Assembly: GCA_014361195.1 (NCBI GenBank)
Contig: JACIWA010000007.1
Span: 3,346 to 67,345, forward strand
DNA from: Thermoplasmatales archaeon
GTDB taxonomy: Archaea; Thermoplasmatota; E2; UBA202; JdFR-43
Length of the DNA: 64,000 bases
Direction of reading: 5' to 3'
In this document: positions 23,461-57,753 of the stretch, in pieces
Position numbering within the stretch: position 1 is the first letter of the stretch
Layout: each line of letters starts with the position of its first letter
The notes under the pieces: generated by a model
Database searches by the model: none
Seen by the model: only the letters and a program-made list of their open reading frames with translations
What the model was told of the DNA's origin: nothing
Made by a program: the position numbers and the translations under genes

Positions 23461-25410
23461 ATGAATAGCTATGGGAGGCTTTTACTTGCCCTTTCCATAG
23501 GGCTAATGGTAGCGGGTTTTACTTCTATTTTCCAGGGAAAAGGAAATGAAAATTCTATTGAAAGAGGTTTAGGATGTATATTGGAAGAGATAACTCCTGA
23601 TAATAATGTAAATTTCGTGAATCTTGCTCCTCCTTCCTGGGATTGGAGAAATCAGGGGATAGTTACTTCAGTTAAAAATCAAGGGGGTTGTGGTTCATGC
23701 GTCGCTTTTGCTTGTGTAGGAGTTTTTGAAGCGGTTATAAAATGGAAAACTGGTTTGACAACTGATTTAAGTGAAGCACACCTATTTTTCTGTGCGGGAG
23801 GGAGGTGTGAGGTAGGAATGGCGATAAGCACCGCAATGGATTATTTAAAGAATTATGGGGTGAGTGATGAAAACTGTTTTCCATATGATGGTGCAATTTA
23901 CGGGCAAAATTTGCCATGTAATCCATGTGAGGGATGGGAGGAGAGTGCTTTTAAGATAGATTCATGGGGGACAGTAAGCGGGAGAGAGAATATAAAAAAC
24001 ACAATTTATAATTATGGGCCAGTTGCTGCTTCTTTTATTGTTTATGAAGATTTTTATCGCGAGTATCCGAATCCTAGCAGATGGCCAAATGATGTGTATT
24101 ATTATCAATATGGAAATTCAGTGGGGGCGCATGCGGTTGCAATTGTGGGATATGATGATGCCCAGCAATGCTGGATTTGCAAGAATAGCTGGGGAGCGAC
24201 ATGGGGACTACAGGGATACTTTAAAATAAAATATGGAGAGTGCGGAATAGATGACTGGGTATATTACATAACATATTCTCCTACTCTTGTTGCAAGTGCG
24301 GGTGGGCCATATAAAGGGAAACCAGGAGAGAGCATACAATTTTATGGTTCTGCATATGGAGGAGTAAATCCATATAGCTGGAACTGGAGCTTTGGAGATG
24401 GAAGTTATAGCAATGAGCAAAATCCAAGGCATGTATATACTAAAGCGGGAAATTATACAGTTAGATTAACTGTAAGAGATGCAAGAGGACAAACCGCTAG
24501 TTCAACAACTAACGCAATTATAAATAATCCTCCCTCAAAGCCAAATATAAAAGGGTCAAATGCGGGAAGAAAAAATATTCAATATACTTTCTATTTCGTT
24601 TCCACTGATGCAGATGGAGACAAAATAAAATATAAAGTTGATTGGGGGGATGGGAGTTCGTCTGAAACAGGATTTATTAAATCAGGAGAGAATGCAATTT
24701 TAACTCATGCATGGAAGAAAGAAGGGAAATATAACATAAGAGCAGAGGCGGAAGATGAAAGAGGAGAGAAGAGTGGATATTCAAGCTATTATATTGAAAT
24801 AGGGGAGAAGGAAGCACCATTTCCTCCAACGAATCCTTATCCAGAAGATGGAGCAACCTCTGTTCCATTAAATGTTGTTCTTTCCTGGGAGTGCTATGAT
24901 CCAGATAACGATACTCTATATTATACAATATATTTAGATGGAAAAAAAGTTGCGGAAAATATAACCGCAAATAAATATCAGTTGCATAACCTTGAGCCAT
25001 TCAAGGAATATACATGGGAAGTGCATGTAATTGACAGCGATGGCTTAACTTCACAAAGCCAAACATGGCATTTCAGAACAAAAGATATAACTCCTCCAGA
25101 TGTCAGCATAATTGAGCCGAAAGAAAATCATCTTTGCATTGGAAATTTTTCAATACCATTCTTCAAAACATTTTATATTGGAAAAATAAAAGTCATTGTA
25201 AATGCAAGTGATGAGCAATCTGGGTTGCAAAAAATAGAATTTTATGTAAATGGAAAGCTTGAAGCGACAATTTATGAAGAGCCATATGAATGGGTATGGA
25301 ATGAAGATACACTTTATGATTTGCATAAGCTTGAAGTAGTGGCATATGACAATGATGGAAACTATGCAAAAGACAGCATCGAAGCAATTGTTTTAAATCT
25401 CTTCCCCTAA
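23461..25410 (+). CDS. Secreted papain-family (C1) cysteine protease with PKD, FN3-like and C-terminal Ig-like domains
   Basis: Catalytic Cys context NQGGCGSCVAFA, His context GAHAVAIVGYD and Asn/Trp context KNSWGATWG. PKD motif WNWSFGDGSYSNEQNPRHVYTKAGNYTVRLTV. No I29 propeptide lies between the signal anchor and PPSWDWR. Confidence 0.9.
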   Translation: MNSYGRLLLALSIGLMVAGFTSIFQGKGNENSIERGLGCILEEITPDNNVNFVNLAPPSWDWRNQGIVTSVKNQGGCGSCVAFACVGVFEAVIKWKTGLTTDLSEAHLFFCAGGRCEVGMAISTAMDYLKNYGVSDENCFPYDGAIYGQNLPCNPCEGWEESAFKIDSWGTVSGRENIKNTIYNYGPVAASFIVYEDFYREYPNPSRWPNDVYYYQYGNSVGAHAVAIVGYDDAQQCWICKNSWGATWGLQGYFKIKYGECGIDDWVYYITYSPTLVASAGGPYKGKPGESIQFYGSAYGGVNPYSWNWSFGDGSYSNEQNPRHVYTKAGNYTVRLTVRDARGQTASSTTNAIINNPPSKPNIKGSNAGRKNIQYTFYFVSTDADGDKIKYKVDWGDGSSSETGFIKSGENAILTHAWKKEGKYNIRAEAEDERGEKSGYSSYYIEIGEKEAPFPPTNPYPEDGATSVPLNVVLSWECYDPDNDTLYYTIYLDGKKVAENITANKYQLHNLEPFKEYTWEVHVIDSDGLTSQSQTWHFRTKDITPPDVSIIEPKENHLCIGNFSIPFFKTFYIGKIKVIVNASDEQSGLQKIEFYVNGKLEATIYEEPYEWVWNEDTLYDLHKLEVVAYDNDGNYAKDSIEAIVLNLFP

Positions 25411-25466
25411 ACTTTTTTGGGAAAAAATTTATATACTCTTTTTCTATATACATTTGGAGGCAGAAA

Positions 25467-28400
25467 ATGACCGAAAAAAAATATAGGTTGGTAATAAGCG
25501 TGTTTGTAGCGATAGCAATGATAACAACAACAATACCAATGGCAATAACAGTTCCACCACCATCCGATACACAACAGGCAATTAATGAACCAATACCACC
25601 GACACCAGGTTATCAAGGACCACATGGACAGATAGTATTTGAAGAAACATTTGATGCAGATCTTGGTGTATTTACCGTAATAGACAACTCTGGAGATGGA
25701 ACATGGCAGTGGGATGGCACAGGAGCAGCAATGTGGGCGGATGGAGGAGAAACTGATGATGAGGATGACTATTTAAGCACAGATATAGAGTTACCAGATA
25801 TTGATACAACTTGCAATGCACTTACACTGCAATTTGACTACTGGGGAGAAGGCGGAGTATTTGAAGTACTCGCAGGCATTGATGTTTTGGGAACATTTAC
25901 CGCAGCAACACGGGCTACTGCAGATATTGATTTAACAAGCTATGAAGGAACAACAATAACCCTTGCTTTCCATGTTTACGCAACTGAAACAAGAACAATA
26001 TATATTGACAATGTTGTGATTGCACAGAACCCAAGAACTGATATAATAATAAATGGAATCGAAGGAATGGAAGATGGCGGAAGATACAATACATTCCCGA
26101 AGTGGATAGATGTTAATGTAACAAATGGAGGAACAGAGCCAATCACAGGAGCGGATTTCCATCTACAAATTTATCAGGAAGTACCATTTGAGCCAATAAT
26201 ATATAATTGCTGGGACATGGAGGAATGTTTCTTGCTTACATGGGATGTATTCAGCTGGGATGGAGATCAGGCAACATGGTATTGGACAGAAAAGAGGAGC
26301 CACAGCCCAACCCACAGCTATCACAGCCAGCCAGATTATCTGGCAACATATGAAGCGTACTCATTTGATAGCTTGGTACTGCATGACTATTTCGCAATTC
26401 CAACAACAATTGAAGTAGATGGACGTACACAGCCAGTAACAGGAGCATATCTGACATTCTGGCACTGGTGCGAAGGAGAGTTTGATGGAACAAACCCAAT
26501 TGATTATGGTGTAGTAAGGCTCGAGACCGCAGCCCCACCACCAGCAAGCGCAATTGTTGGCGGACCATATTATGATACAGATGGAGAATGGGTACAGGAA
26601 ACAATAGATATATCCGCATGGATTGGAGAGAGCTTCAAGATAAACTTCACATGGAGAAGTGACGGATACCTTAACTTTGAGGGATGGTATATAGATGATA
26701 TATGCATTGAATTGAGAGTTGGAAGCGCTCAACCATTAATATTCCAGGGATATGAATACGTAGATTTTGAAGCGGGAGAAACAAAGACATTCGGTTTCCC
26801 AATTCAATGGACAATTCCGCAACCAGGAACATATTATATAGAAGTCTATACTGACTATGAAGATTGCAATCCACTTGGAAATAGAATCAACTGGACAATA
26901 TGGTTTGGAGATGTATGCGATGGAGAAATAACAAACATAGAGGTTCCACCATTAGTACGAATGCCAAACGACCCATGTGGAGAAGAACTCAACTGGGTTA
27001 TAGTTCCAATAAATGTAACAGTTCATAACAATGGAACACTTGTCGAAGATATACCAGTTGAAGTAACCGCACGCCACAAGATAACAGAAAAATTGTGGTG
27101 GGATGATGTTGAGAGCGGAGACCTTGGATATAGATATGTAACCTGGGGTTCATCAATAAGTATGTGGAATATAGTTGGTGCAGATTTCTACAGCCCGTTC
27201 CATTCATGGCACTTTGGAGATTCCCCAACAACATATCCAGCAGGAGTTAATGGTGGATTTGCAGTAGTTCCATATGATACAATAGATTGGATCGACTTGA
27301 AGAACTATCCAGATGCAGATATAGTAATAAAGGCAAAGTGGGACTTTGTAGCACCTGATAGGGCGGTTCCAGTTTTAATTAATGGAAATACATGGTACTT
27401 CTTCATTGGTAGAAGCATGCACTTAACAGGAAATTCTGGAGGATGGCAGGAAGTAAGATTCAGTGATTTGCTGGAAGGATATGTAACATATTATGGATTG
27501 AACAACATCTTTGAATTGCCCGAATTATACGGATTTACAGACTTCAAAGGATTTGCAATAGGTGTATGTGGTCCAGGATTAGCCCCAACAGTTGGAGGAG
27601 GAGCGGGATTATACATTGATGATATACTCGTGTATAAGAGCTATGCAGGAGAAGTAGTATGGAGCGATACACTTGTAGCAGAAGATTTAGAGCCATGCCA
27701 GAGCAAGGTGTTGTACTTTGAATGGAATACAACAGAATATTGCGATTATATTATAACCGCAACAGTTAAACTTGATTGCGATATGGACCCAACAAATGAT
27801 GAGATGGGAGCACCAACAAGAATATATAAACAGATATATGAAGGAGATGACTTTGAGAAGTGGGAACAGGAAGACAATACATATGGCCTGCCAGATCACT
27901 GGCATATTGTAGAAGAATGCTCAATCTGCCCAGATGATCACATCTGGTGGAATGGAGACGAAGCAACTGGAATATATGTCAATGGAGTTGATGAAATCCT
28001 TGTAATAAATAGAACATTTGACTTCACAGGTGTAACAACCGCAACACTCAGCTTTGAAACATATTATTATATTGAAGCTGGATATGATTATGGCTATGTA
28101 GAAGTAAGCAATGACTGCGGTATGACATGGTTCAGAATAGAGAGCTATACAGGAAATACAGGAGGAGTATGGGTAACTGAAACATTAACACTTGAGGAAG
28201 GAGTAACAATATTGTATAGTGAATATACAGATTTGTACTTCACAATGCCAACTGGTTTCTTCACAGATAAGATGCACTTCCGCTTCAGATTTGTGTCAGA
28301 TGAATTGACTGCGGAGAAGGGATGGTTCATTGACGATGTTATGGTAGTTGCAGACGGAGATACACTCTTCTTCGATGATATGGAAGATGCGGCATTCAGT

Positions 28401-29942
28401 GCAGATGCATGGTATCATATGGCCTGGTATGCAGGATGCCACTGGCATGAAGAAGATACATTTGGAGCACCATATCCAAATCCACCTGTAGCCTTCTGGA
28501 ACGGAGAACCAAGAAATGTAATCGGAGAAGGAACACTATACACATTTGGAAACTATCCACCAGTAGGAAGTGCAATAAGCTTTGGTGCATGGACTTATAC
28601 TAAAGTATCACCTGGCCTTGGTTCATGGAATTACTGGTATGGAGTCTGGGGAGAAAGAACATACTGGGCACAGGCATCAGCGGGAGAATGGCAGGAGATG
28701 TGGCGCAACTATACAGTTGACTTCTCATCTGTTCCAGTAGGAGCAACAATAACGTTCTATCTGGATGCTATTGCATATCCCTCAACAGCCACATATTGGC
28801 TTGAGGCAAGAAGTGGAACAACAACAATGTTATATCCAATTCCAGGAGATGATAGTGGCGATCTACAATTATTCACATTTGATTTGTCACCATTTGCGGG
28901 AATGTCTAATGTAAGACTTGCATTCCATGTAAATCATACAACAGTAACCGGGCAGGAAGAATTCACACTATGGGATGGATGGATAGTCGGACAAGGACCA
29001 ATATGGCCATATGGCAGATACTATAACAAGGTTGATGAGAAATTAATACTCTACTTCGACTTGACACATGCATATGAAGCATTCCTCGAATGGGATCAAA
29101 TGTACAGCTTTGCAGATCCATATCCATATGACTATGGATTAGTTGAGATATGGACAGGAAAGGAGTGGAAGGCATTGTTCATAGTGCAGGGCAGCAGTGG
29201 CGGTGGATGGGGACACATGAAACTTGACATAAGCGAGTATGTTGGCGGAGACGAGCTGACAAAGATAAGATTCAGATTTATAAGCGATGAAGCAAACACT
29301 GACATTGGATGGCTCATTGACAATGTAACGATACAGGGCAAGATTGATTATAAGAAACCAAAAGCAAGCATATCATTAAGCCCAGCAGCACCAAATGGAT
29401 GCAATGACTGGTATAAGACAGGAGTAACAGTAACAATAACTGCAACAGACAATGTAAAGGTAGCAAAGATATGGTATCGCATTGATGGCGGAAGCTGGAA
29501 AGTATATACCGCACCATTTACAGTTGATGTAGATGGCTCACACACAGTTGACTACTATGCAGAGGATATTGTCGGAAACACATCACCAGTTGGAACAGTA
29601 AGCTTCAAGATAGATAAGACAGCTCCAACAGTAACAATAACCGCTCCACAGGCGGGATACATCTACTTAATGGGCAGACAACTCTTCAAGAACCCACTCG
29701 GAGGAACAGTAATAATTGGAGGAATCTACTTTGAAGCAACCGCAACCGATGCAATGAGCGGAGTTGACTATGTATCATTCAACATAAATGGCTATACATA
29801 TGACGATGCAAGCGCTCCATACAAGATATGGTGGCACAAGTTCGACTTAATGCCAAAGAAATACACATTGACAGTTTCAGCGTACGACGAAGCATGCAAC
29901 AAAGCAGCTGATGCAACACTAGCCTTTACACACTGGCTATAA
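25467..29942 (+). CDS. Giant secreted surface protein (1491 aa) built of repeated beta-sandwich modules plus C-terminal Ig-like domains
   Basis: N-terminal signal/anchor LVISVFVAIAMITTTIPMAI. Strong GGAGG SD at 25456-25460. Recurring module ends are IYIDNVVI, GWYIDDICI, GLYIDDILV, GWFIDDVMV and GWLIDNVTI. There is no HExxH motif. The protein is rich in W, Y, T, G and D and poor in K. Confidence 0.85.
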   Translation: MTEKKYRLVISVFVAIAMITTTIPMAITVPPPSDTQQAINEPIPPTPGYQGPHGQIVFEETFDADLGVFTVIDNSGDGTWQWDGTGAAMWADGGETDDEDDYLSTDIELPDIDTTCNALTLQFDYWGEGGVFEVLAGIDVLGTFTAATRATADIDLTSYEGTTITLAFHVYATETRTIYIDNVVIAQNPRTDIIINGIEGMEDGGRYNTFPKWIDVNVTNGGTEPITGADFHLQIYQEVPFEPIIYNCWDMEECFLLTWDVFSWDGDQATWYWTEKRSHSPTHSYHSQPDYLATYEAYSFDSLVLHDYFAIPTTIEVDGRTQPVTGAYLTFWHWCEGEFDGTNPIDYGVVRLETAAPPPASAIVGGPYYDTDGEWVQETIDISAWIGESFKINFTWRSDGYLNFEGWYIDDICIELRVGSAQPLIFQGYEYVDFEAGETKTFGFPIQWTIPQPGTYYIEVYTDYEDCNPLGNRINWTIWFGDVCDGEITNIEVPPLVRMPNDPCGEELNWVIVPINVTVHNNGTLVEDIPVEVTARHKITEKLWWDDVESGDLGYRYVTWGSSISMWNIVGADFYSPFHSWHFGDSPTTYPAGVNGGFAVVPYDTIDWIDLKNYPDADIVIKAKWDFVAPDRAVPVLINGNTWYFFIGRSMHLTGNSGGWQEVRFSDLLEGYVTYYGLNNIFELPELYGFTDFKGFAIGVCGPGLAPTVGGGAGLYIDDILVYKSYAGEVVWSDTLVAEDLEPCQSKVLYFEWNTTEYCDYIITATVKLDCDMDPTNDEMGAPTRIYKQIYEGDDFEKWEQEDNTYGLPDHWHIVEECSICPDDHIWWNGDEATGIYVNGVDEILVINRTFDFTGVTTATLSFETYYYIEAGYDYGYVEVSNDCGMTWFRIESYTGNTGGVWVTETLTLEEGVTILYSEYTDLYFTMPTGFFTDKMHFRFRFVSDELTAEKGWFIDDVMVVADGDTLFFDDMEDAAFSADAWYHMAWYAGCHWHEEDTFGAPYPNPPVAFWNGEPRNVIGEGTLYTFGNYPPVGSAISFGAWTYTKVSPGLGSWNYWYGVWGERTYWAQASAGEWQEMWRNYTVDFSSVPVGATITFYLDAIAYPSTATYWLEARSGTTTMLYPIPGDDSGDLQLFTFDLSPFAGMSNVRLAFHVNHTTVTGQEEFTLWDGWIVGQGPIWPYGRYYNKVDEKLILYFDLTHAYEAFLEWDQMYSFADPYPYDYGLVEIWTGKEWKALFIVQGSSGGGWGHMKLDISEYVGGDELTKIRFRFISDEANTDIGWLIDNVTIQGKIDYKKPKASISLSPAAPNGCNDWYKTGVTVTITATDNVKVAKIWYRIDGGSWKVYTAPFTVDVDGSHTVDYYAEDIVGNTSPVGTVSFKIDKTAPTVTITAPQAGYIYLMGRQLFKNPLGGTVIIGGIYFEATATDAMSGVDYVSFNINGYTYDDASAPYKIWWHKFDLMPKKYTLTVSAYDEACNKAADATLAFTHWL

Positions 29943-41411: not shown

Positions 41412-42947
41412 GTGCATTGGGCGGATATAGTGGCGGAAAAACTCTATGAGCAGAAAAGAGAGCATGTTTTAGCTACCGCTATAACTCCTTCTGGGCCGAT
41501 TCATGTTGGAAATTTAAGAGAAGTGCTTACAACAGAGGCGGTTTATAGAGCACTAAAGGAGAGGGGAGGAAATGCAAAGCTTATATACATAGGAGATACC
41601 TTCGACCCTTTAAGAAAAGTTTATCCTTTCTTGCCCGAGGATTATGAAAAATATGTAGGGATGCCTTTATCAGAAATTCCATGTCCCTGCAACGGGCATG
41701 CCAGCTATGCCCATCATTTCCTTGAGCCATTTCTTGAGAGTATAGAAAAATTGGGAATTAAGCCAGTAATATATTATGCACATGAGCTCTATGGAAAAGG
41801 TGTTTATAATGATGCAATAAAAACATCTCTTGAAAATTCGGAAAAAATAAGAGGTATTTTATCAAGCATATCTGGCAGAGATTTGCCCCCCTCTTGGGCG
41901 CCGGTGAATATAAAATGCGAGAGATGTAAAAAACTTGCGGGAGAATTAACTTCTTATGATCATCCTGATTTAAGCTACAAATGCAAATCCTGTGGCTATG
42001 AAGGTGTTCATGATGTAAGGAAAGGAGGAATTGCAAAGCTTCCATGGCGAATTGACTGGCCTGCGAGATGGAAAATTTTTGGAGTAACTTTTGAGGCATT
42101 TGGAAAGGATCATGCTGCTGCTGGTAGCTCCTGGGATACAGGTAAGGTAATTTCAAAGGAAGTTTTTGGATACGAGCCGCCGATGCCCCTTGTTTATGAA
42201 TTCATAAATTTAAAGGGAAAGGGGGCGATGCATGGCTCAACAGGCATAGCAATATCTGCGGAAGAAGCGCTAAAAATCATTCCACCTGAAGCCTTTCGTT
42301 TCCTCTTTATGAAATACGAGCCACATCGTCATATAGATTTCGATGCTACATATGGAATTATCAATCTTATGGATGAATATGATAAATATGAAAAAGCATA
42401 TTTTGAGGGAGAAGGCGAGTTTAAGGAATTCAAAAGAGTTTATGAGCTTTCCCAGCCATATGAAATTGCAAAAAGAAAGCCAATTACAATACCCTATTTA
42501 CATCTTGCAATTGTTGCACAGATAGGAAAAAATTTTGAGGAAGTTGTTGAAATACTGAAAAGAAAACATGATTTGCGGGAATTTGATCTGGAAAGATTGA
42601 AGGAGAGATATGAAAAAATAAGTTATTGGCTCAAAAAATATGCTCCAGATGAGATAAAATTTGAGCTTGTAGAAAATTATCCAAGTTTAGAGCTGAGTGA
42701 TGAGGATAAAAAATTTTTAGATGCATTGATTAAAAATTTTGAAACCTTAGAATGGGAAGCAGAAAAAATACATTCCATGATTCATGAAACCGCAAAAAAT
42801 AACAATTTTTCAGCAAGAAGAGCATTTGAGCTGATATATTTAATAACACTCGCAAAAACAAGAGGGCCGAGGGCTGGCTATTTCCTCCAGTCTCTTGGAA
42901 AAGAATTTATATTAAACAGGATGAAAAACTATTTAAATATTGCATAG
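41412..42947 (+). CDS. lysK: Lysyl-tRNA synthetase, class I (GTG start)
   Basis: (M)HWADIVAEK start, PSGPIHVGNLRE (HIGH-type) motif and a Zn-binding CERC...CKSC insertion typical of archaeal class I LysRS. Confidence 0.92.
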   Translation: MHWADIVAEKLYEQKREHVLATAITPSGPIHVGNLREVLTTEAVYRALKERGGNAKLIYIGDTFDPLRKVYPFLPEDYEKYVGMPLSEIPCPCNGHASYAHHFLEPFLESIEKLGIKPVIYYAHELYGKGVYNDAIKTSLENSEKIRGILSSISGRDLPPSWAPVNIKCERCKKLAGELTSYDHPDLSYKCKSCGYEGVHDVRKGGIAKLPWRIDWPARWKIFGVTFEAFGKDHAAAGSSWDTGKVISKEVFGYEPPMPLVYEFINLKGKGAMHGSTGIAISAEEALKIIPPEAFRFLFMKYEPHRHIDFDATYGIINLMDEYDKYEKAYFEGEGEFKEFKRVYELSQPYEIAKRKPITIPYLHLAIVAQIGKNFEEVVEILKRKHDLREFDLERLKERYEKISYWLKKYAPDEIKFELVENYPSLELSDEDKKFLDALIKNFETLEWEAEKIHSMIHETAKNNNFSARRAFELIYLITLAKTRGPRAGYFLQSLGKEFILNRMKNYLNIA

Positions 42948-43558
42948 GGTATTTCAAAGCATTCTTCATTTATAATGCGAAAGGCCCTCGCCTCCTTATT
43001 AATCGGGTCAATGACAATTGATGCATGAAATCTTTTATTAAAATAATTTTTTTGAGTATCTAAATCAGTGCCTGACATAAATGAGGAATAGCCTGGGTGG
43101 GAGTGATACCATCCAACTATTATATAATCTCCTTTTATCTCGTCTAATTTATCAAAAATTTCTCCAAATGCATCTCTTTTGAATTTTACATTAAATGAGG
43201 AAGAATCGAGAGGGGCGGTTATTATATCAAATGCAATAGTATATTCCTCCTCCCAGTAAAATAAATCACCTATTATGAATCCCATCGCCTCTTTTTCTTC
43301 TTTTGCCATTTCATATGAATGAAAAACCATTTTCTTGAATGCCTCATTTTTTATGTAAAAGTTTAATTCATCCAGAAAAGGATAATCAAATTGCTTCTCA
43401 TTCCTGCTAAATCCTATTTCTTCTAAATTTCTCTCCCTATATATTTCCCCAATTAGCCTTTTTATATCATCTTTCGGATAATGAAATAATATCTGTGATG
43501 GAGGCGGAGCTATCTTCCTCTCTTTCTTTTCTTCTCTTTCTATTTTAACCATCTTCAT
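42929..43558 (-). CDS. JAMM/MPN+ metalloprotease (Rpn11/desampylase-like)
   Basis: Complete JAMM motif: Glu in EEKEAMGFIIG, then GWYHSHPGYSSFMSGTDL (HxHx7Sx2D). 14-nt overlap with the E2 gene. Confidence 0.9.
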   Translation of the reverse strand: MKMVKIEREEKKERKIAPPPSQILFHYPKDDIKRLIGEIYRERNLEEIGFSRNEKQFDYPFLDELNFYIKNEAFKKMVFHSYEMAKEEKEAMGFIIGDLFYWEEEYTIAFDIITAPLDSSSFNVKFKRDAFGEIFDKLDEIKGDYIIVGWYHSHPGYSSFMSGTDLDTQKNYFNKRFHASIVIDPINKEARAFRIINEECFEIPYAIFK

Positions 43559-44051
43559 CTATTATTCTAGGCCTGCTTCTTATTTGCTGTGGAACAAATG
43601 GATTTTTGTTGAAATATTCTGCAGCTCTTGTGCATGTATCGCTTTCAAAAGGATTTTTAGGATTTGGATAAGAGAGCAATGTTTCTATACCTTTTATAAA
43701 TGCAAGAAGGTTTGATTTTATCGACCAGTTATCAAGCAATTTTGTGCATACATATCCTCCTTCTTCCGGTGGCATTATATTTGGATGAAATATTTCGCTT
43801 TTCCACCTTACAATTGGAGTTTGGTATGGATAATCAGGAGTTATTATTATCTTCAATTTATGGTTGTATTTTGTTAAAATTTTTCCATCGCTGAGAACAG
43901 GGCCAGGTGTATTTACAAGTGTAACATTTATTTCAATTGGCAATTTATTTAAATTTTCATCTGATAGAACAAAGTGGTGGGCGGTCTTTTTTCTGCATTC
44001 CGCAATCTCATTTTTAATTCTCTTTATCAATATCTCCTTTGGTAGGGGCAT
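43545..44051 (-). CDS. Ubiquitin-conjugating enzyme (E2/UBC fold) homologue
   Basis: PDYPYQTPIVRWKSEIFHPNIMPPEEGGYVCTKLLDNWS...LLSYPNPKNP shows the YP..P, HPN triad, catalytic Cys102 (codon 43746-43748), the conserved W and the LL..PNP..P pattern of canonical E2s. Confidence 0.85.
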   Translation of the reverse strand: MPLPKEILIKRIKNEIAECRKKTAHHFVLSDENLNKLPIEINVTLVNTPGPVLSDGKILTKYNHKLKIIITPDYPYQTPIVRWKSEIFHPNIMPPEEGGYVCTKLLDNWSIKSNLLAFIKGIETLLSYPNPKNPFESDTCTRAAEYFNKNPFVPQQIRSRPRIIDEDG

Positions 44052-44284
44052 TTTCCTCCAACAGGATCAGGTATAAGCTCAATCATATCCCCATCTTGCA
44101 GGAGCGCTTCTTCAACAGTTAATTCTGCTTGAAGAATTTTCTTTCCTATTCTCAAAACATATGCCCCGGGATTTTTCTTCCAATAATTTGCTGCCTCCTC
44201 TATAATTTCCTCTATAGTATTTTCCTTATTTACATCCATTTTAAGTTTATTTCCGGTTTCAACATCTTTAACAACTATTTTCAT
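44027..44284 (-). CDS. Ubiquitin-like beta-grasp protein precursor (diglycine followed by 8-aa tail)
   Basis: MKIVVKDVETGNKLKMDVNKENTIEEI...LRIGKKILQAELTVEEALLQDGDMIELIPDPVGG-KCPYQRRY lines up with the ubiquitin pattern MQIFVK..G+...+V....TIE...G+.L.....L.......+.L. GG is at residues 76-77. Confidence 0.75.
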   Translation of the reverse strand: MKIVVKDVETGNKLKMDVNKENTIEEIIEEAANYWKKNPGAYVLRIGKKILQAELTVEEALLQDGDMIELIPDPVGGKCPYQRRY

Positions 44285-44297
44285 CTCTTTTAATTTT

Positions 44298-44885
44298 TTA
44301 AAAATTTATAAATTTTTCCACAATCTCCATTGTAGCTTCTCTCAATTTCTCCGCTTCCCTTCCCATTTCATCAATTTTTCTCCTCATTTCACTTTTGTAA
44401 ATTTGATCTTCAATGCAAGAAAGATTTATTTTTACATTCAAGATTGCTGAATTAAAAGAGGCATTTGCAAAAAGCATCGCAACTCCCGCATCACTTATCG
44501 AATTTTTATTCCCTTTCTCCGCAATTTCCCTTATTTCCCTCATTAAAATGAAGCATTTCTCAGCGGTTTTTGCTGGAACCTCACAAGCTTTCTTATATGC
44601 TTCCTCAATTCCCTTTTTTTCCCTTATTGCCTTAATGACTTCATTGAAAGCATTTGCATCTTCCTCAACAAGCAAGAGAAATTCCTTCCTCATGTTTTTC
44701 AATTCATAAAGCCTCGCTTTCATTTCTTCCTCAACGCTTTCATACTTCTTTTTCCCTATGGTAAGATTGCAGACCATCTCCGCCAGCCCGCATGCAATTG
44801 CCCCACCAAGCGCGGACGCACTGCCTCCTCCTGGAGCGGGAGAAGCACTTGCCAGTTCCTCAAGAAATTCTTCCATGCCCTTCAT
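44298..44885 (-). CDS. Formiminotetrahydrofolate cyclodeaminase (FTCD C-terminal domain family)
   Basis: LASASPAPGGGSASALGGAIACGLAEMV is the family signature. 4-nt overlap with the upstream transferase gene. Confidence 0.85.
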   Translation of the reverse strand: MKGMEEFLEELASASPAPGGGSASALGGAIACGLAEMVCNLTIGKKKYESVEEEMKARLYELKNMRKEFLLLVEEDANAFNEVIKAIREKKGIEEAYKKACEVPAKTAEKCFILMREIREIAEKGNKNSISDAGVAMLFANASFNSAILNVKINLSCIEDQIYKSEMRRKIDEMGREAEKLREATMEIVEKFINF

Positions 44886-45784
44886 TTGCTCACCTCCAAT
44901 AACCTTTTCTCTATTACCTGCTCCGGTTTGAAATTATCGAGTTGCAGATAAAAAGAAGCGACATCAATCAATGCATCAAGTGGAACCATCCCAACAATTT
45001 CGCTTGAAAGGACATTTACTCCATATCTCTCCGCCTCTCTTTTTATTGTCTCAAAAACTCTGAAAAGAGGTGTTTGCTTGTAATTTGTCATGTTCATTGA
45101 TACCTGCACAATATTTTTCTCTTTTATTTCAAATCCCATCGCTTTTACATATCTATACCCTCCACTGCTATGCCTTACTGCTTTCGCAATTTTTTTTGCG
45201 ATTTCAACATCATTTGTTGCAAGATTTACATTAAAAGCTATGAGAATTTCTCTCGCCCCCACAGCGGTAGCCCCAGCAGTTGGATGTATTGAATTCGGTC
45301 CATAATCAGGCACCTTTTCCGGATTTTTTCCTATTTCTTCTTTTAGTCCTTCAAATTCTCCTTTTCTTACATCCGCAAGATTTCTTCTGCTCTCTTTTTT
45401 TGCAGCTTCTTCATATAAAAAGCATGGAACTTTTGTTATTCTTGAAAACTCCTCCGCAAATTCATTTGCAATTTTTATGCATTCTTCCATTTTTGTATTC
45501 ATTATTGGAACAAATGGAACAACATCCATTGCCCCCATTCTTGGATGCTCTCCCTTATGTTTGTTCATATCTATTAGCTCAACCGCTTTTATTGCCATAT
45601 CAAGAACCGCTTTTTTAACTTCCTCTGGCTCACCAAGAATTGTTACATCTGTCCTATTATGGCTTTCATCAGAATGAATGTTTAATATTTTCACATTGTA
45701 TTTTCTTACTTCATTGATTATAGCATCTATTACTTCCTTATTTCTTCCCTCACTAAAATTTGGGACACATTCAATCAATTTCAT
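44882..45784 (-). CDS. Glutamate formimidoyltransferase
   Basis: MKLIECVPNFSEGRN start. 300 aa with two subdomains. Confidence 0.88.
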   Translation of the reverse strand: MKLIECVPNFSEGRNKEVIDAIINEVRKYNVKILNIHSDESHNRTDVTILGEPEEVKKAVLDMAIKAVELIDMNKHKGEHPRMGAMDVVPFVPIMNTKMEECIKIANEFAEEFSRITKVPCFLYEEAAKKESRRNLADVRKGEFEGLKEEIGKNPEKVPDYGPNSIHPTAGATAVGAREILIAFNVNLATNDVEIAKKIAKAVRHSSGGYRYVKAMGFEIKEKNIVQVSMNMTNYKQTPLFRVFETIKREAERYGVNVLSSEIVGMVPLDALIDVASFYLQLDNFKPEQVIEKRLLEVSK

Positions 45785-45915: not shown

Positions 45916-47577
45916 ATGGAAGGAAAAAAGATGTTGGCAATAATTTTGGCGACAATAGTGATTACTGGAGCGATGGGAGCAATTGCTGCAGACAAAACAA
46001 AAAACAGCGAGATAAAAAAAATAGAAAAAGTGAAATTAGAAAAAGCGGGAATAAAACCGCACATGGAAGTATGCAAAGAAGTAAAAACAGTGGAAAAGAA
46101 AATTATACCCATGCCTCTCGGAGATGTGCAAATAACCGCATTTGAAACAGATGAGATGCACCCCGCAATTGCAAGCGATGGCGCAGGAAACATATTGCTT
46201 GCATTTGAAGGCGATTTAAGAGGAGAAGGGACACCAAATGTATGGTTTACTTATGGAACAGGCGGAGGAACTTACTGGTGGGAAAATGCGGTTGCATGGA
46301 ATATAGAAAGTCCTCCAGAGAGACCTTCTCTTGATTACTGGGGAGGAAAAATATTCTTTGGGACAATGGTTCCGAGCCCATATGACCACGAAGGAGGTGC
46401 TCTTTATTTATTCTCTTGTGAAGATCCAACAGACTTTGAGACCTATATGTTGGTATATTGGGCTGTAGAAAACCTTGGAGCGGGTTACTATGGATTTGTG
46501 GATGTTGATATAGCATGCGACAATGCTTTCGAGAGCTGGGCATATGGAGGAATTTCAATACTCGGAGATCATGGAAGAGGAGGAGAAAAATTGACAGGAA
46601 CACCAATGTTTTCCTATCAATTCACAGAAGACGGATATGCATGGTTCTATTATTTCAGCAGTGCAGATGATCCATTCAGAATAGAAAAAGGACAATCAAC
46701 CGCATTTGATATTGACCCAGTAACTCATCTTGCATATCCAATATGGAATTATTTAAATGCAGAAACAGGTGTGCTTGACATGTATTTCTGTATATTTGAC
46801 TTCGGAAAATGGGATGAGTACCAAGGATATCCAATTCATCCAGATGTCAGAGACGGATTCATAAATACAACTGGAATAAATGACATGAACATAGATATTT
46901 CCGCATATAACAATAACATAATAATTGTCTCACAGACAGATGAATATGGAAGCCAGGATATAACATGCTACTATTCAAAAGATGGACTTCGAACAATTAA
47001 GAAGGCGATGATAGCGAATACAGGAGCAGATGAAATGTATCCGAGAATAATGCATGTTGGAGAAAATACTGCAATATGCATATTCGTAAAGAATGGAAAT
47101 CTATACTTCTCTCAAACTGAAGACGGAGGGGCAACTTGGTCAGAGCCAGTGAAAGTTAATGATGTTGATGGAACTGTTGCGGAAGAATATGATACCGCTG
47201 ATGTTTGCAAAGCGGGAGTAATATGGATGGATAACAGAAATGGAAACTATGACTTATTCTTTGATACCGCTGGGGCATTCCCAATTATTGGAATCCAGGA
47301 TATTTCTGGTGGGTTTGGTGCAAAAGCAACAATAGCAAATATTGGAAACGCACCCGCAAAGAATGTTGCATGGAGCATTGACTTAGAAGGAGGACTTGTT
47401 TTGTTAGGAAAGCATAAGGAAGGAATAATTTCAGAAATTCCAGCGGGAGCAACCACAACAATAAGCACAGGCTTAGTTCTTGGAATTGGAAAGACAACGA
47501 TAAAGGTAAAGGCAGGAGATGCTCTGGCGACAGCGAGTGGCTTTGTACTCGGCCCATTTGTGCTGGGCGTGAGCTAA
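45916..47577 (+). CDS. Secreted BNR/sialidase-like beta-propeller protein with C-terminal CARDB-like domain
   Basis: AGGAGG SD at 45902-45907. N-terminal anchor MLAIILATIVITGAMGAIAA. BNR motif SQTEDGGATWSEP. Composition is rich in W, Y, G and D, like the giant protein. Confidence 0.7.
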   Translation: MEGKKMLAIILATIVITGAMGAIAADKTKNSEIKKIEKVKLEKAGIKPHMEVCKEVKTVEKKIIPMPLGDVQITAFETDEMHPAIASDGAGNILLAFEGDLRGEGTPNVWFTYGTGGGTYWWENAVAWNIESPPERPSLDYWGGKIFFGTMVPSPYDHEGGALYLFSCEDPTDFETYMLVYWAVENLGAGYYGFVDVDIACDNAFESWAYGGISILGDHGRGGEKLTGTPMFSYQFTEDGYAWFYYFSSADDPFRIEKGQSTAFDIDPVTHLAYPIWNYLNAETGVLDMYFCIFDFGKWDEYQGYPIHPDVRDGFINTTGINDMNIDISAYNNNIIIVSQTDEYGSQDITCYYSKDGLRTIKKAMIANTGADEMYPRIMHVGENTAICIFVKNGNLYFSQTEDGGATWSEPVKVNDVDGTVAEEYDTADVCKAGVIWMDNRNGNYDLFFDTAGAFPIIGIQDISGGFGAKATIANIGNAPAKNVAWSIDLEGGLVLLGKHKEGIISEIPAGATTTISTGLVLGIGKTTIKVKAGDALATASGFVLGPFVLGVS

Positions 47578-49151: not shown

Positions 49152-50498
49152 CTATTTCCCTCCATGCTTTGTTTCTCTTATCCTTACTTCCACAAATAGC
49201 GGGCAGGCAAGCGGGGAGCCAGCAACGATAGCAACCCCTACGGGAAGCATTTGAATTTCATTGGAAGAAGACGAATCAAGTCCTTCAACGCTTGAAGTGA
49301 TTGCTTTAAGGTCATTTGGATTGGTTGTTTTGAGGATTATGTGTGTGTTGCATTGAGATATAACATTTTTATCTATTCTTGCGGGGCGCTGTGTTAAAAT
49401 TGCTAATCCTATGCCAAACTTTCTTCCCTCTGAAGCTATATTTTTTATTATGTTACTTGCCATGCTTTTTCCCTGTCCTCTTTCCGGACAATATCTGTGA
49501 GCTTCTTCAATAACTATAAGCAATGGAGGAATTGAATTATTTTTCCTTTCTTCAAATATTCTTGTAAGGAGTATTGAAACGAGCATTTCCTGAATATAAG
49601 GCGGTACACCTTTCATATTTATTATTGAACATCTCCCATTTTTTACAATTTCATCCAATGGTGTATAATATTTAGAGAAAATTCCCATTGATTTTATCTG
49701 CTCCATTTGATTTATTAGTCCCCATTTAGCACTGCTTTTTGCATCCCTTATTTCTTCAAGAATATCATCTATTGTATATATTCTCCTCTGGCTGGCATTT
49801 TTCCATGCTTCATATAGCAATCCTTTCTGAACTTGAGTTGCCTCAGGAAATAAATAAAGAACGTCTTGAAATGATAAATTTACTTCATCGAGCAAGAGAG
49901 GAATTGCATCTCTGTTATTACTGCAAACAGGAGAGTATTCAAAAACATTTTTTGCATAACTTTTTGGGCTAACATCAAATTTCTTCATCAAATCTATCTC
50001 TTCAAAATTTGGATGGCGTAGCGATGTATATTCTCCATGTGGATCTATTATTAAGATTGCATTCTCCCTTTTTATAAATCCCTCTACAATTACTCCCATT
50101 GTATAGCTTTTTCCACTTCCGCTTTTTGCAAGTATGCATAAATGCTTTTGAATGAGTATTTCTGGAGATAGAAAAATTTTAATATTCATATCTTTAAGAA
50201 GACCTATATATATTCCCTCATCTCCTAACCCAATTATCTTCTTTATCGTTTCTTCATCCGCTCTATAAACTTTTTCACCAACGCTAAAAGGTGTTCTTAC
50301 CATATATCTTTCTTCAGTTGAGCCAATTATGTTTGCTTTTGCAAAAGTTCCATCGCTTCTATTAAAAATTTCCCATACTTGAGATAAAATTTTCTTTTCA
50401 TGAAAGACGCATACATAATCGAGCTTCTTTATTTCTTTACTTGCCTTAAATGTAAAATAAGAAGTAGTTCCCTCTACTATTTCACCAATTTCCTCCAT
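49152..50498 (-). CDS. HerA/DUF87-like P-loop ATPase
   Basis: Walker A ILAKSGSGKSY, Walker B LLIVIEEAHRY and an N-terminal barrel-like ~90 aa. No NurA-like gene is adjacent. Confidence 0.75.
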   Translation of the reverse strand: MEEIGEIVEGTTSYFTFKASKEIKKLDYVCVFHEKKILSQVWEIFNRSDGTFAKANIIGSTEERYMVRTPFSVGEKVYRADEETIKKIIGLGDEGIYIGLLKDMNIKIFLSPEILIQKHLCILAKSGSGKSYTMGVIVEGFIKRENAILIIDPHGEYTSLRHPNFEEIDLMKKFDVSPKSYAKNVFEYSPVCSNNRDAIPLLLDEVNLSFQDVLYLFPEATQVQKGLLYEAWKNASQRRIYTIDDILEEIRDAKSSAKWGLINQMEQIKSMGIFSKYYTPLDEIVKNGRCSIINMKGVPPYIQEMLVSILLTRIFEERKNNSIPPLLIVIEEAHRYCPERGQGKSMASNIIKNIASEGRKFGIGLAILTQRPARIDKNVISQCNTHIILKTTNPNDLKAITSSVEGLDSSSSNEIQMLPVGVAIVAGSPLACPLFVEVRIRETKHGGK

Positions 50499-51268
50499 TA
50501 TCCTATATACCTCAAATCTTCTCTTTCACTCTTCTCCTTTTCAATCATCGATCTTTCAATGCTTTTTATTTTCTCAGTAATTCTTCTCAGCTCCTCTGCT
50601 TTTTTATCCAAACTTGAAAGACTAATTTTTAACCCGAGAATTTTTGAAAGCACACTCGCAACTTCTCTTGCTGAATTTGGATCAACAATATATCCAGATG
50701 TTTCTCCCATAAGGCACGCCCCCCGCATCCCGCGCATTTTTCCCAGGCCCAAGAGCAAGCCAGAGGCGCCCACTATGCCCCCGCCCTCATCTTCCTTGAA
50801 TACAATCCCGTGTTTCTTAAGTTCTTCGACAATTTCAATGTCTGTTGCTGCACCTGTAACTCTTGGATGTTCTACTTCTACGCCAAGTCCATATCCTCCA
50901 AGGGTAAAAATCATTTTCACTCCAAAATTTTCTGCAATGTCGAGTATTTTTTCTGCAAGCAAATATTGTCCGTGAGGTGAAAGAGCCTGATAATCGCCTG
51001 TAAGGAGAATTAAATCTTTCTCTCCTTTATAGTAAAAAAATTCATTTTTTACCATTCTTACCACACCATTTGAGCCAATTATAACTTGAGGTGGAAAATC
51101 TGTAGAATATAGTTCCGCAAATTTCTTTGCTTTCATCTCCTCTATTAAATGCTCAACCGCCAGTTTTCCAACATTTCCTATTCCTGGCAATCCTTCAATT
51201 AGTATCGGATCCTTTAGCTGGGGTTTTTCCAAATATATTATTTTTATTTCTTCAAATTTTTTTGCCAT
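50498..51268 (-). CDS. PAC2-family (proteasome assembly chaperone-like, COG1938) protein
   Basis: PILIEGLPGIGNVGKLAVEHLIEE is the typical PAC2/PbaA-B N-terminus. It holds the conserved position after Nop10. Confidence 0.8.
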   Translation of the reverse strand: MAKKFEEIKIIYLEKPQLKDPILIEGLPGIGNVGKLAVEHLIEEMKAKKFAELYSTDFPPQVIIGSNGVVRMVKNEFFYYKGEKDLILLTGDYQALSPHGQYLLAEKILDIAENFGVKMIFTLGGYGLGVEVEHPRVTGAATDIEIVEELKKHGIVFKEDEGGGIVGASGLLLGLGKMRGMRGACLMGETSGYIVDPNSAREVASVLSKILGLKISLSSLDKKAEELRRITEKIKSIERSMIEKEKSEREDLRYIG

Positions 51269-55440: not shown

Positions 55441-57753
55441 ATGAGAAAGACGCAAATATTTGTTGTATTAATTCTGCTGGCTTCTTTATTCAGCCTGCCA
55501 GGAAAAGCATATACTAGCGAAGGGGAGTTTGGAGGAGTAGCAAAGGCGGATGATGGAAATATAATTGTGGTTGGGTACGTGCTTGAAAGCAGTAAATATG
55601 TGATGACTGTTGAAAAATATGATGCTAAAACAGGCTCCTTAATCTGGAACAAGAAATTTAGCAGATATTCTCAGAACATTGGAAAGGCGGTTGTAGTTGA
55701 CGCAAATGGAAACATTTATGCGGGCGGGGTCAGCGGAAGCGAGTTTGCGGGAATTGAGATTCCATCAACTGACTATTTAATAGTTAAATATGATAAGAAC
55801 GGGAGAGAAATATGGAATAAAACATATGATAATGGATTTGCGGACTTTTTAATGGATATGGCAATAGATGAGGATAATAATGTTTATGCAACTGGAATGA
55901 CTCTTTATTTTGATATTGGAAACAAAAATCTATCTAATATAGATTTCTGGACAATAAAAATTGGTGAAGATGGAAAAATAATTAAGCAGGATAAGTTTGA
56001 TGAAAAAATAGATGCGGGCTTTGGTATAGATGTGAGAGGAAATAAAGTTATTGTTACTGGAACTGTACAAAAAGAAGAGGAGCAGAGCAAATATTGCACA
56101 CTTATTTATAATAAGGATTTATTTTTGATTTCAACAATATATTATGAAACAGGAATATGCTCTGCATCAGATGTAGCAATTTTTAGTGATGGAAGCTTTG
56201 CGGTTACAGGTAGCAAAGACGATGATATATTAACGGTCATCTATGATAGCAACGGAAATAAAAAGAAAGAATTTGTTGAAGGAGGAAGTAAAAAAGATGA
56301 TGCATTGGCTATTTCGTCTGATGGAATCAATTTTGTTATAGGTGGCTTAACAACAGAGAATGTTAAGAAGAGATGGTATATTGCAAAATATAATCAAACT
56401 TCAAGATTATGGGTTAATGGAACTGATGTTGAAGGAGAAGTGAAAAGAGTTTTGATGGATGCCAGCGGTATATATGCAGTTGGCTATAAAAAAATTCAGG
56501 AAGGAGTAGAAATTCCATGCATAAGAAAATACTCATCAGATGGAGCTTTTTTATGGGAAGGAAAAGCAACTCAGCCCCAGAGGCCATTGAGCGCTGATTT
56601 CAGATGGCTTCCTTCTAATCCAACAAGAGCGGATGTAGTGAATTTTTATGATTCATCAACTGGAGAAATAAATTCATGGCATTGGGATTTTGGAGATGGT
56701 TCAACAAGCAATGAGAAAAATCCAAAGCATCAATATTCTGCAATTGGAAAATTTAATGTAACTTTAACTGTAAGAGGGGCTAGCGGTGAGGACACCATAA
56801 CAAAAGAAATTTATATATCAAATTCTCTGCCATTTGCGGATTTTGACTGGAATCCAAAAAATCCTGTAGAAAAGGAAAATATAACCTTTGATGCGAGCAA
56901 GAGCTATGATTTAGATGGATATATAGTAAATTATACATGGCAATTTGGAGATGGAAGTGTTGGTTATGGAAAAGAAGTTATTCATGCTTATAATAGCAAA
57001 GGAAATTATACGGTAAATTTAACTGTATTGGACAATGATGGGGGAGAAAAGAAAATAACTAAACCAATTATTGTGAGCGAGGTAGGAGCAAATCCGCCTT
57101 CCGCGTCTTTCACAATTAAGGAAAGGGCGGGTAAGGGAGAAGTTGTTATAATTGATGCAAGTGATAGCTATGATATAGATGGCTACATAGTTAATTATAC
57201 ATGGTATTTTGGAGACGGAACAAATGCAACAACAACTCAGCCAATAATTTCTCATACCTGGTATAAAGATGGAGAATATAATGTTACACTTATAGTAGAG
57301 GATGATGAAGGATATAAATCTTCTTATTCAAGAGTAATAATAATAGGTGGTCCTCCGGATCTAAGGATTTATGCACCAAATGAAATTAAATGCGAGAAGA
57401 ACAAAGAAAAATCCTTCAAAATTAATATTTCCTGTGCTTACCAACCTCTATACTATTTGAATTTTTCCTTTGATATTGAAGGAGATATTGAAGTAATCCC
57501 AAAAATAGAAAACTTCAATATTTCTGCTGGTAGCTCATTGGAAATTGAAATAAAAGTTATTGCAAAAGAAAAAGGAGAAATAAAAATAAAATCGATTGGA
57601 AAATATATAGATATAGAAAATAATATAGAAAATGAGATCGAAAGTAATGAAGCCATAGTAGCAATTAATTTATCAGAAAAGACACCATCCTTCGAGCTGA
57701 TTGCATTTATATTTGCAATAATTGCTATTTTGATAATAAGAAGAAGGAAATGA
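55441..57753 (+). CDS. Surface protein: signal peptide, beta-propeller repeats, four PKD domains, C-terminal P-S-F/TM/RRRK anchor
   Basis: Signal peptide IFVVLILLASLFSLPGKA. Recurring GN.YA.G / VTG strands are propeller-like. There are four WxFGDGS..-type PKD repeats. The C-terminus is PSFELIAFIFAIIAILIIRRRK. Confidence 0.85.
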   Translation: MRKTQIFVVLILLASLFSLPGKAYTSEGEFGGVAKADDGNIIVVGYVLESSKYVMTVEKYDAKTGSLIWNKKFSRYSQNIGKAVVVDANGNIYAGGVSGSEFAGIEIPSTDYLIVKYDKNGREIWNKTYDNGFADFLMDMAIDEDNNVYATGMTLYFDIGNKNLSNIDFWTIKIGEDGKIIKQDKFDEKIDAGFGIDVRGNKVIVTGTVQKEEEQSKYCTLIYNKDLFLISTIYYETGICSASDVAIFSDGSFAVTGSKDDDILTVIYDSNGNKKKEFVEGGSKKDDALAISSDGINFVIGGLTTENVKKRWYIAKYNQTSRLWVNGTDVEGEVKRVLMDASGIYAVGYKKIQEGVEIPCIRKYSSDGAFLWEGKATQPQRPLSADFRWLPSNPTRADVVNFYDSSTGEINSWHWDFGDGSTSNEKNPKHQYSAIGKFNVTLTVRGASGEDTITKEIYISNSLPFADFDWNPKNPVEKENITFDASKSYDLDGYIVNYTWQFGDGSVGYGKEVIHAYNSKGNYTVNLTVLDNDGGEKKITKPIIVSEVGANPPSASFTIKERAGKGEVVIIDASDSYDIDGYIVNYTWYFGDGTNATTTQPIISHTWYKDGEYNVTLIVEDDEGYKSSYSRVIIIGGPPDLRIYAPNEIKCEKNKEKSFKINISCAYQPLYYLNFSFDIEGDIEVIPKIENFNISAGSSLEIEIKVIAKEKGEIKIKSIGKYIDIENNIENEIESNEAIVAINLSEKTPSFELIAFIFAIIAILIIRRRK
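56590..57350 (+). repeat. Four tandem PKD-domain coding repeats (~85 aa each)
   Basis: WHWDFGDGSTSNEKNPKHQY..NVTLTV, WQFGDGSVGYGKEVIHAY..YTVNLTV and WYFGDGTNATTTQPIISHTW..YNVTLIV, plus a flanking copy. Confidence 0.8.

Follow-up and report, generated by a model that had tools for sequence, protein, structure and literature searches.

How can a ubiquitin-like conjugation cassette work when the enzyme that should activate its modifier is missing? This question is raised by three genes in a stretch of 64,000 nucleotides from a Thermoplasmatales archaeon (assembly GCA_014361195.1, contig JACIWA010000007.1, positions 3,346 to 67,345), hereafter the window. They encode a ubiquitin-like protein (Ubl), a ubiquitin-conjugating enzyme (E2) and a JAMM protease, with neither an activating enzyme (E1) nor a ligase (E3) beside them. 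A first-pass annotation, made from the letters alone, had suggested here a distinct minimal system, different in kind from those already known, which would borrow its E1 from elsewhere in the genome. We consider it likely that the three genes are the working Ubl-conjugation core of a four-gene system of the Thermoplasmatota, which would be charged by its own cognate E1 acting in trans and would probably be independent of any E3.

All three open reading frames (ORFs) lie on the minus strand: the Ubl gene at 44027-44284 (85 aa), the E2 gene at 43545-44051 (168 aa) and the JAMM gene at 42929-43558 (209 aa). They overlap by 25 nt (Ubl/E2) and 14 nt (E2/JAMM), reproducing exactly the coordinates and overlaps first annotated. 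Regarding the E2, Pfam UQ_con matches it at 2.6e-15 and its closest PDB sequence matches are Rad6 (UBE2A) and UBE2E1, at about 1e-10. A model computed with AlphaFold2 (AF2) from 39 homologues has a mean pLDDT of 89.6, and its top Foldseek matches are all canonical E2s, with a probability of 1.0. Residues H89-P90-N91, C102, W109, P129 and N130 are invariant in the 39-sequence alignment, and the protein also carries YPYQTP and the PNP loop. Pfam, PDB and model comparisons hence agree with the hallmarks listed in the first-pass annotation (YPYQTP, HPN, Cys102, Trp, PNP), its proposed catalytic residues prove to be conserved among orthologues, and the 168-aa protein is confirmed as a canonical UBC-fold E2 whose predicted catalytic residue is C102. 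Besides C102, two other cysteines are conserved across the 39 family members, C140 being invariant and C19 at least 90% conserved. We know of no such cysteine pair in canonical E2s; the two might form a disulfide, bind a metal or provide a second acceptor site.

In the Ubl, a diglycine (GG) at residues 76-77 is followed by an 8-aa tail, KCPYQRRY, which overlaps the start of the E2 gene. The match of the window protein itself to Pfam ubiquitin (E=0.0016) is under the curated cut-off; the same model is matched by 21 of 31 Ubl orthologues, with a best value of 1.5e-7, and a profile of the family matches ubiquitin over its full length when compared with the PDB. The AF2 model (pLDDT 82.4) superposes on ubiquitin and NEDD8 at a root-mean-square deviation of about 1.0-1.8 Å in Foldseek, where Caldiarchaeum ubiquitin (6fnn_C, 28% identity) figures among the top ten matches. 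The ubiquitin-like pattern first recognized in this 85-aa protein, with its GG at residues 76-77, is thereby borne out, and profile searches and model together confirm a pro-ubiquitin-like modifier with a predicted ubiquitin fold. Across the family the C-terminus ELIPDPEGG is nearly invariant (ELIPDPVGG in the window), and the tail beyond GG has no conserved sequence: 49 of 85 Ubl ORFs stop exactly at GG and the remainder have tails of 1-15 aa.

The 209-aa protein is matched by Pfam JAB at 5.5e-14, its top PDB match is Rpn11 (2.4e-15), and the Caldiarchaeum Rpn11 homologue follows at 2.8e-11. It has an N-terminal extension of about 65 aa and an intact E...HxHx7Sx2D metal motif, with the Glu in EAMG and the remainder in HSHPGYSSFMSGTD. 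Both matches and motif confirm the predicted Rpn11-like JAMM/MPN+ metalloprotease, as the intact motif had already suggested on first reading. It also weakly matches the NCBIfam model desamp_Halo (3.7e-5), and no component of the cassette reaches the cut-off of an NCBIfam equivalog. Since so many Ubl reading frames stop right at GG, deconjugation is probably the conserved role of this protease; trimming of a precursor would be needed only in some lineages, the one of the window included.

The reported lack of E1 and RING-type E3 in the 64 kb was upheld by every search. With four cognate E1s of relatives as queries, the best tblastn hit in the window had E=0.59, and a hidden Markov model (HMM) of 128 cognate-E1 sequences found no match at E<=10 among the window ORFs of at least 45 aa. 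Regular expressions for RING found nothing, either in the window or in the flanking DNA (up to 10 kb) of the related loci examined. No RING or U-box Pfam match was obtained among the window ORFs (~70, essentially all of sizeable length) or in the gene calls of relatives. The cassette does sit, as first described, in a housekeeping setting and not in a defence island. Pfam annotation of essentially all large window ORFs gave housekeeping genes only, including a ribosomal-protein operon, PCNA, ArgRS, LysRS, deoxyhypusine synthase, Nop5, eIF2-alpha, HMG-CoA reductase, GGGP synthase, ThiD/ThiN and genes for a formiminotransferase and a cyclodeaminase.

The cassette is, however, not alone in its phylum, and HPN-type E2s, said on first reading to be rare in archaea, are not rare there: relatives of this E2 family occur in at least 537 genomes in a scan of one genome per GTDB species. 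All of the best 80 E2 matches whose records name a lineage are metagenome-assembled genomes (MAGs) of Thermoplasmatota, Thermoplasmata or Methanomassiliicoccales, and about 100 close E2 homologues all belong to uncultured Thermoplasmata/Thermoplasmatota. Around distant homologues (45-57% identical), gene calls and Pfam delineate a four-gene operon composed of a ThiF-family E1 (265-277 aa), a Ubl (62-82 aa), the E2 and a JAB protein. We scanned 80 loci with HMMs built for E1, Ubl, E2 and JAB, 67 of them having enough flanking sequence. Adjacent Ubl, E2 and JAB genes were found in 60 of these 67, and the triad thus co-occurs in related genomes. The E1 gene is directly upstream in 38 of the 60 and at 1.2-2.4 kb upstream in three, and 19 have no E1 within up to 10 kb. 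Judged by gene order, E1-Ubl-E2-JAMM without E3 is the commonest arrangement in Thermoplasmatota, and the lack of an E3 seems to be genuine and to hold for the family as a whole. The window shares the marks of this family: a Ubl ending in ELIPDP[EV]GG, the E2 motif WxSxIFHPNI...GGY[VI]CTKL and a tightly coupled JAMM gene directly downstream. Given the 38 of 60 loci with E1 upstream, the distinct minimal system first proposed gives way to a split form of the E1-Ubl-E2-JAMM operon.

Several loci depart from this layout. Two tandem E2 paralogues occur in L057 (9198-10303) with no Ubl or JAB nearby, and in L073, L074 and L080 the E2 is followed by a much longer JAB protein (about 260-360 aa), with no recognizable Ubl. 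In the distant relatives L004 (CP070767.1, 1-3733) and L006-L008 (1-1337), a large STAND ATPase (NB-ARC/AAA_16 + TPR) is encoded at a distance of a few kb from the operon. L004 also has a 291-aa small GTPase of the Arf/Ras/Roc family, a type that is unusual for a Thermoplasmatota genome.

How the E1 came to be missing is best seen by comparing loci around the window. Identity to locus L010 is 92% for the E2, 88% for the Ubl and 80% for the JAMM protein. The order Ubl-E2-JAB with a convergent class I lysyl-tRNA synthetase (LysRS) gene is common to the window, L010, L011-L019 (70-73% identical), L022 and L096-L100. Among these, an E1 is directly upstream only in L096, L099 and L100, whose E2 is 66% identical. 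Upstream of the triad, the window and L010 have the formiminotransferase and cyclodeaminase genes; in the clade at 72% identity, a NiFe-hydrogenase operon of divergent orientation takes this place, beyond ~470 nt of intergenic DNA. Moreover, orthologues of the E1 persist as stand-alone genes in sister lineages, at 65-72% identity to the operon-linked E1s. Those of L091 and L092 have kept the ancestral left flank of the L099 type (MetRS, PAS, PHP, PvlArgDC) without Ubl-E2-JAB, and L093-L095 and L103 are further cases. The MAG JAGGYX01 holds both a stand-alone E1 (L090) and a contig with E2-JAB-LysRS (L022). In locus-context look-ups it is the sole case of a stand-alone E1 and the triad in one assembly, none having been found in the closest clade. 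Breakpoints between E1 and Ubl are thus documented by gene order in sister lineages, and the E1 survives them. We infer that, in the hydrothermal lineage of the window, a rearrangement likewise separated the E1 gene from the operon. When the ancestral MetRS/PAS/PHP flank was sought in the window, only a PvlArgDC homologue was found (9533-10090), in a rearranged context.

The E1s of relatives are compact. In the four that were scanned (256-277 aa), Pfam ThiF spans nearly the whole protein and there is no rhodanese domain. They score 75-104 bits against the NCBIfam model SAMPActivE1UbaA, whose cut-off is 450, and no equivalog is reached. The family conserves GxGxxG, R71 (the Arg finger), D126, a C167xxC170...C251xxH254 zinc site and an invariant C186 in RFSCTG. 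Compared with solved structures, these E1s score 77-81 bits with the adenylation domains of eukaryotic UBA3 and SAE2, and 56-60 bits with E. coli ThiF and MoeB. These features point to a minimal E1 of the MoeB/UbaA/Uba5 kind, with a putative catalytic Cys in the crossover loop. Of note, P0177, an E1 homologue that shares 53% identity with the operon-type E1, bears the label 'Candidatus Thorarchaeota archaeon'; Asgard archaea may also have this E1 family, unless the contig is mis-binned.

A borrowed E1 is the alternative that survives best, although we judge it unlikely. According to it, the window's genome would have no cognate E1 at all, and a housekeeping E1 of the UbaA/MoeB type, whose normal business is to activate SAMP or MoaD proteins, would activate the Ubl and charge the E2. 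The 64 kb without E1 and the 19 full-triad loci without E1 in cis speak for it, and cross-reactivity is conceivable, the cognate E1 family being of UbaA/MoeB architecture and size. Nevertheless, since stand-alone orthologues of the operon-type E1 persist in sister lineages, a relocated cognate E1 is the more parsimonious explanation. Besides, the Ubl belongs to the ubiquitin family, not to ThiS/MoaD, and E1-Ubl pairs are normally specific. The idea of a trans-encoded E1 of ThiF/MoeB/UbaA size, put forward in the first-pass annotation, is therefore sound; its loan from a SAMP/UbaA-type system is the part that yields to relocation.

Several points weigh against a cognate E1 in trans and an E3-free core. 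The E1 in trans is deduced from sister lineages only, and the single case within one MAG, JAGGYX01, depends on correct binning. The E1s of relatives have no ubiquitin-fold domain (UFD), and we know of no route by which a compact E1 lacking this domain recruits a canonical UBC E2. In addition, E3-independence is argued from absence in the operon, and a RING or U-box gene could sit elsewhere.

Very improbable, in our view, is a role in antiviral defence of the Bil or CBASS Cap2/Cap3 kind, in which phage or virus proteins, or else an effector of defence, would receive the Ubl. The gene set of relatives (E1, Ubl, E2, JAB and no E3) does mirror BilABCD, the JAMM protease weakly matches the PADLOC JAB models, and the E1s of relatives match the E1 part of the Cap2 models. 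PADLOC, however, gave no Ubl match and, for the E2, one marginal partial match only (E=0.0087, 28 residues); for want of meaningful E2 or Ubl matches, the assignment as a defence system was rejected. Moreover, the E2 is a Pfam UQ_con protein with HPN, not of the Bil-type CEHH. The locus is also syntenic across many species, its neighbours being genes for aminoacyl-tRNA synthetases, ribosomal proteins and other housekeeping functions, and no defence gene lies close to it; the family, far from being patchy, runs through the species genomes of the phylum counted above.

Could the three genes be a decaying remnant, non-functional or on their way to being lost after the departure of the E1? Besides the missing E1, the Ubl tail would fit such a scenario. 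In a comparison of 80+ loci, the Ubl/E2 junction reads GGAGGAAAATG in the window vs GGAGGTTAAATG in the sister clade, and the 8-aa tail is there because a stop codon has been lost (TAA to AAA). Yet tails after GG are common even where the E1 is in the operon (L020, L096), none of the three ORFs is broken, no catalytic residue is lacking, and the triad-only arrangement is kept in at least 10 species-level genomes of the window's clade. Between the window and L010, the ratio of nonsynonymous to synonymous substitution rates (dN/dS) is 0.089 for the Ubl, 0.047 for the E2 and 0.106 for the JAMM gene. These values equal the level of the LysRS gene (0.097) and largely refute decay, which we regard as extremely improbable; within the E1-less clade, dN/dS is 0.02-0.07. 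Such ratios indicate that the triad is under strong purifying selection, and it is because of dN/dS values of 0.05-0.11 together with intact catalytic residues that we read it as functional. Hardly any credence can be given to a Ubl serving mainly as a sulfur carrier like ThiS, MoaD or Urm1, with E2 and JAMM as accessories: the compact E1 resembles MoeB and ThiF, SAMPs and Urm1 have dual roles according to a review, and 4 of 31 Ubl orthologues weakly match ThiS, but the best fold and profile matches are ubiquitin and NEDD8 instead of ThiS/MoaD, the E1s of relatives are short, nearly all ThiF domain and devoid of rhodanese, and a strictly conserved catalytic E2 with an isopeptidase makes sense only for protein conjugation.

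If the three genes do form a conjugation core served by a relocated cognate E1, the pathway may be pictured as follows. The JAMM protease would trim the pro-Ubl after Gly77, a step needed in the lineage of the window because the lost stop codon added eight residues. The cognate E1, encoded elsewhere in the genome, would then adenylate the GG terminus and take up the Ubl as a thioester on its crossover-loop Cys, presumably the invariant one in RFSCTG, before handing it over to Cys102 of the E2. From there the E2 would transfer the Ubl straight to lysines of target proteins, with no RING E3, and the JAMM protease would also strip the tag from these targets.

The closest experimentally characterized systems are the operons of Caldiarchaeum and Asgard archaea, which encode Ub, E1, E2, a small RING finger protein and Rpn11 (PMC5654768). 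The ubiquitylation system of Caldiarchaeum subterraneum has been reconstituted, its Ub being made as a precursor whose 9-aa tail is then cut off by Rpn11 (Hennell James et al., 2017; PMC5654768), and PDB entries 6fnn and 6fjv cover the Caldiarchaeum Ub and Rpn11 homologue. Like these systems, the window has a ubiquitin-fold modifier with GG, a UBC E2 with HPN and Cys, an Rpn11-like JAMM protease and an operon organization among housekeeping genes, and its Ubl has a tail after GG as in Caldiarchaeum (8 aa here, 9 aa there). It is nonetheless distinguished by a host phylum, Thermoplasmatota, that is neither TACK nor Asgard, by the lack of an E1 in the locus and by a JAMM gene that comes last and is predicted to be co-transcribed, instead of being divergent as in Caldiarchaeum. 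In addition, no RING E3 is present in any Thermoplasmatota locus examined, and the E1 of the family (256-277 aa, a single ThiF) has none of the second Rossmann domain, Cys domain and C-terminal UFD of the Caldiarchaeum E1, and thus not the multi-domain make-up of the E1s of Clusters I and II. We hence consider the system to be a variant of the Caldiarchaeum/Asgard-type archaeal ubiquitin systems, and a largely unstudied one.

Other relatives have been described. 'Cluster III', a group of archaeal and related bacterial Ub/E1/E2/(RING)/JAB clusters, is presented in Supplementary Note 4 of the same study (Hennell James et al., 2017; PMC5654768), which, supplement included, makes no mention of Thermoplasmata. 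Compared by description only, Cluster III resembles the present system in its E1 without C-terminal ubiquitin-like domain and in its various combinations of Ubl, E1, E2 and JAB. Archaeal and bacterial clusters of this composition have reportedly also been treated by Burroughs, Iyer and Aravind. BilABCD and CBASS Cap2/Cap3 likewise bring together Ubl, E1, E2 and JAB (the E1 here being that of relatives) without E3, and their JAB processes or removes the Ubl, as proposed here for the JAMM protease. In contrast to them, the E2 is of the eukaryotic UQ_con HPN type instead of CEHH or Prok-E2, and the locus is vertically conserved in housekeeping synteny instead of being mobile or in a defence island. 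With sampylation (SAMP1-3, UbaA, HvJAMM1) and Sulfolobus Urm1, the system shares, through the E1s of relatives, a MoeB/ThiF-like E1 of compact size that has a Zn site and a Cys in the crossover loop; it also shares with them a protease of the JAMM desampylase type and the absence of E3. Those systems nevertheless have no E2, whereas an invariant catalytic E2 is central here, the Ubl is of the ubiquitin family and not ThiS/MoaD, and the E1 of relatives falls far under the UbaA equivalog cut-off (104 vs 450 bits).

In the literature, our search found no description of the four-gene operon or of its split form. One 2023 preprint is the only publication found that pairs Thermoplasmata or Methanomassiliicoccales with a ubiquitin-conjugating enzyme: it places a 'Ca. 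Thermoplasmatota E2' clade deep among archaeal E2s in a tree of E2 and UEV proteins (bioRxiv 10.1101/2023.07.25.550441). This clade (PF00179) is most likely the same family as the E2 of the window. In the passages available to us, the preprint treats it as a tree clade only and describes neither operon, Ubl, compact E1 and JAMM nor the lack of E3 and the split form.

A broader proposal is that Thermoplasmatota have vertically inherited a complete E3-free pathway made of a ubiquitin-fold tag, a single-domain E1, an HPN E2 and an Rpn11-like protease. We offer it tentatively, rating its chances somewhat below even. To our knowledge, Caldiarchaeum and the Asgard archaea have received nearly all the attention given to ubiquitin systems in archaea, where these are viewed as precursors of the pathway in eukaryotes. 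With a module that spans the phylum Thermoplasmatota and is kept by purifying selection, eukaryote-type E2 conjugation would be known from a wider range of organisms, with the particularity that a canonical E2, an Rpn11-like protease and a modifier of true ubiquitin fold go together with a minimal E1, in the absence of an E3. If this is true, UBC-type E2 conjugation would be an older archaeal trait and not a speciality of Asgard and TACK lineages, a MoeB-sized E1 without UFD would be able to charge a canonical E2, and, in lineages like that of the window, the module would tolerate physical separation from its E1. With three or four small proteins, some of them from thermophiles, the system is a very small target for reconstitution, through which E2 charging without an E1 UFD and substrate choice without an E3 could be addressed. 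For the window itself, the 'missing E1' is best explained by a split of the operon and not by a new kind of pathway.

The three genes of the window may also be expressed as a unit. The two Gly codons of the Ubl, GGAGGA (44054..44059, minus strand), stand 3 nt before the ATG of the E2 (GGAGGAAAATG), for which they form a Shine-Dalgarno-like motif, implying a probable translational coupling of Ubl and E2. Upstream, a block of 33 nt (44291..44323, minus strand), covering the 3' end of the cyclodeaminase gene and just beyond, is 100% identical to the orthologous L010 locus, whereas the coding DNA around it has clearly diverged more. Inside it, TTTATAAA (44305-44312, minus strand) is found ~24 nt upstream of the Ubl ATG, which makes the block a candidate for the archaeal TATA promoter of the three genes. 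At the other end, the JAMM gene shares 19 nt at its 3' end with the class I LysRS gene, which is convergent. Aminoacyl-tRNA synthetase genes recur beside the cassette: LysRS is convergent downstream in the group of the window, a methionyl-tRNA synthetase (MetRS) gene is upstream of the cassette in L099 and of the stand-alone E1 in L091, and synthetases of the TrpRS/TyrRS type are upstream in L004 and L006-L008, joined in L006-L008 by PheRS. These recurring neighbours may be a coincidence or a hint about targets.

Among the other genes of the window, in which no Rfam family or tRNA was found, a PAC2-family protein (proteasome assembly chaperone / PbaA-like; Pfam 3e-59) is encoded directly downstream of a HerA-like DUF87 ATPase at 49152-51268 on the minus strand. 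This pair lies ~5 kb from the Ubl cassette, and a link between them is possible. The formiminotransferase (300 aa) and the cyclodeaminase (195 aa) have separate genes in the window, with a 4-nt overlap (44298-45784, minus strand); they are also split in the independent contig L002, and in L010 (333-1817) the region is a single 494-aa ORF. Divergent from the formiminotransferase gene, a 553-aa ORF (45916-47577, plus strand) has an N-terminal hydrophobic segment and no Pfam match at E<=1e-4. Finally, the plus strand at 23461-29942 encodes a C1 peptidase of the papain family (649 aa), which carries PKD and Big domains, and after it a protein of 1491 aa that has InhA-like MAM and Ig-like domains; a 770-aa PKD-repeat protein is encoded at 55441-57753. 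By their domains, these three proteins have the look of large proteases, secreted or exposed at the surface, and would suit a lifestyle based on protein degradation.

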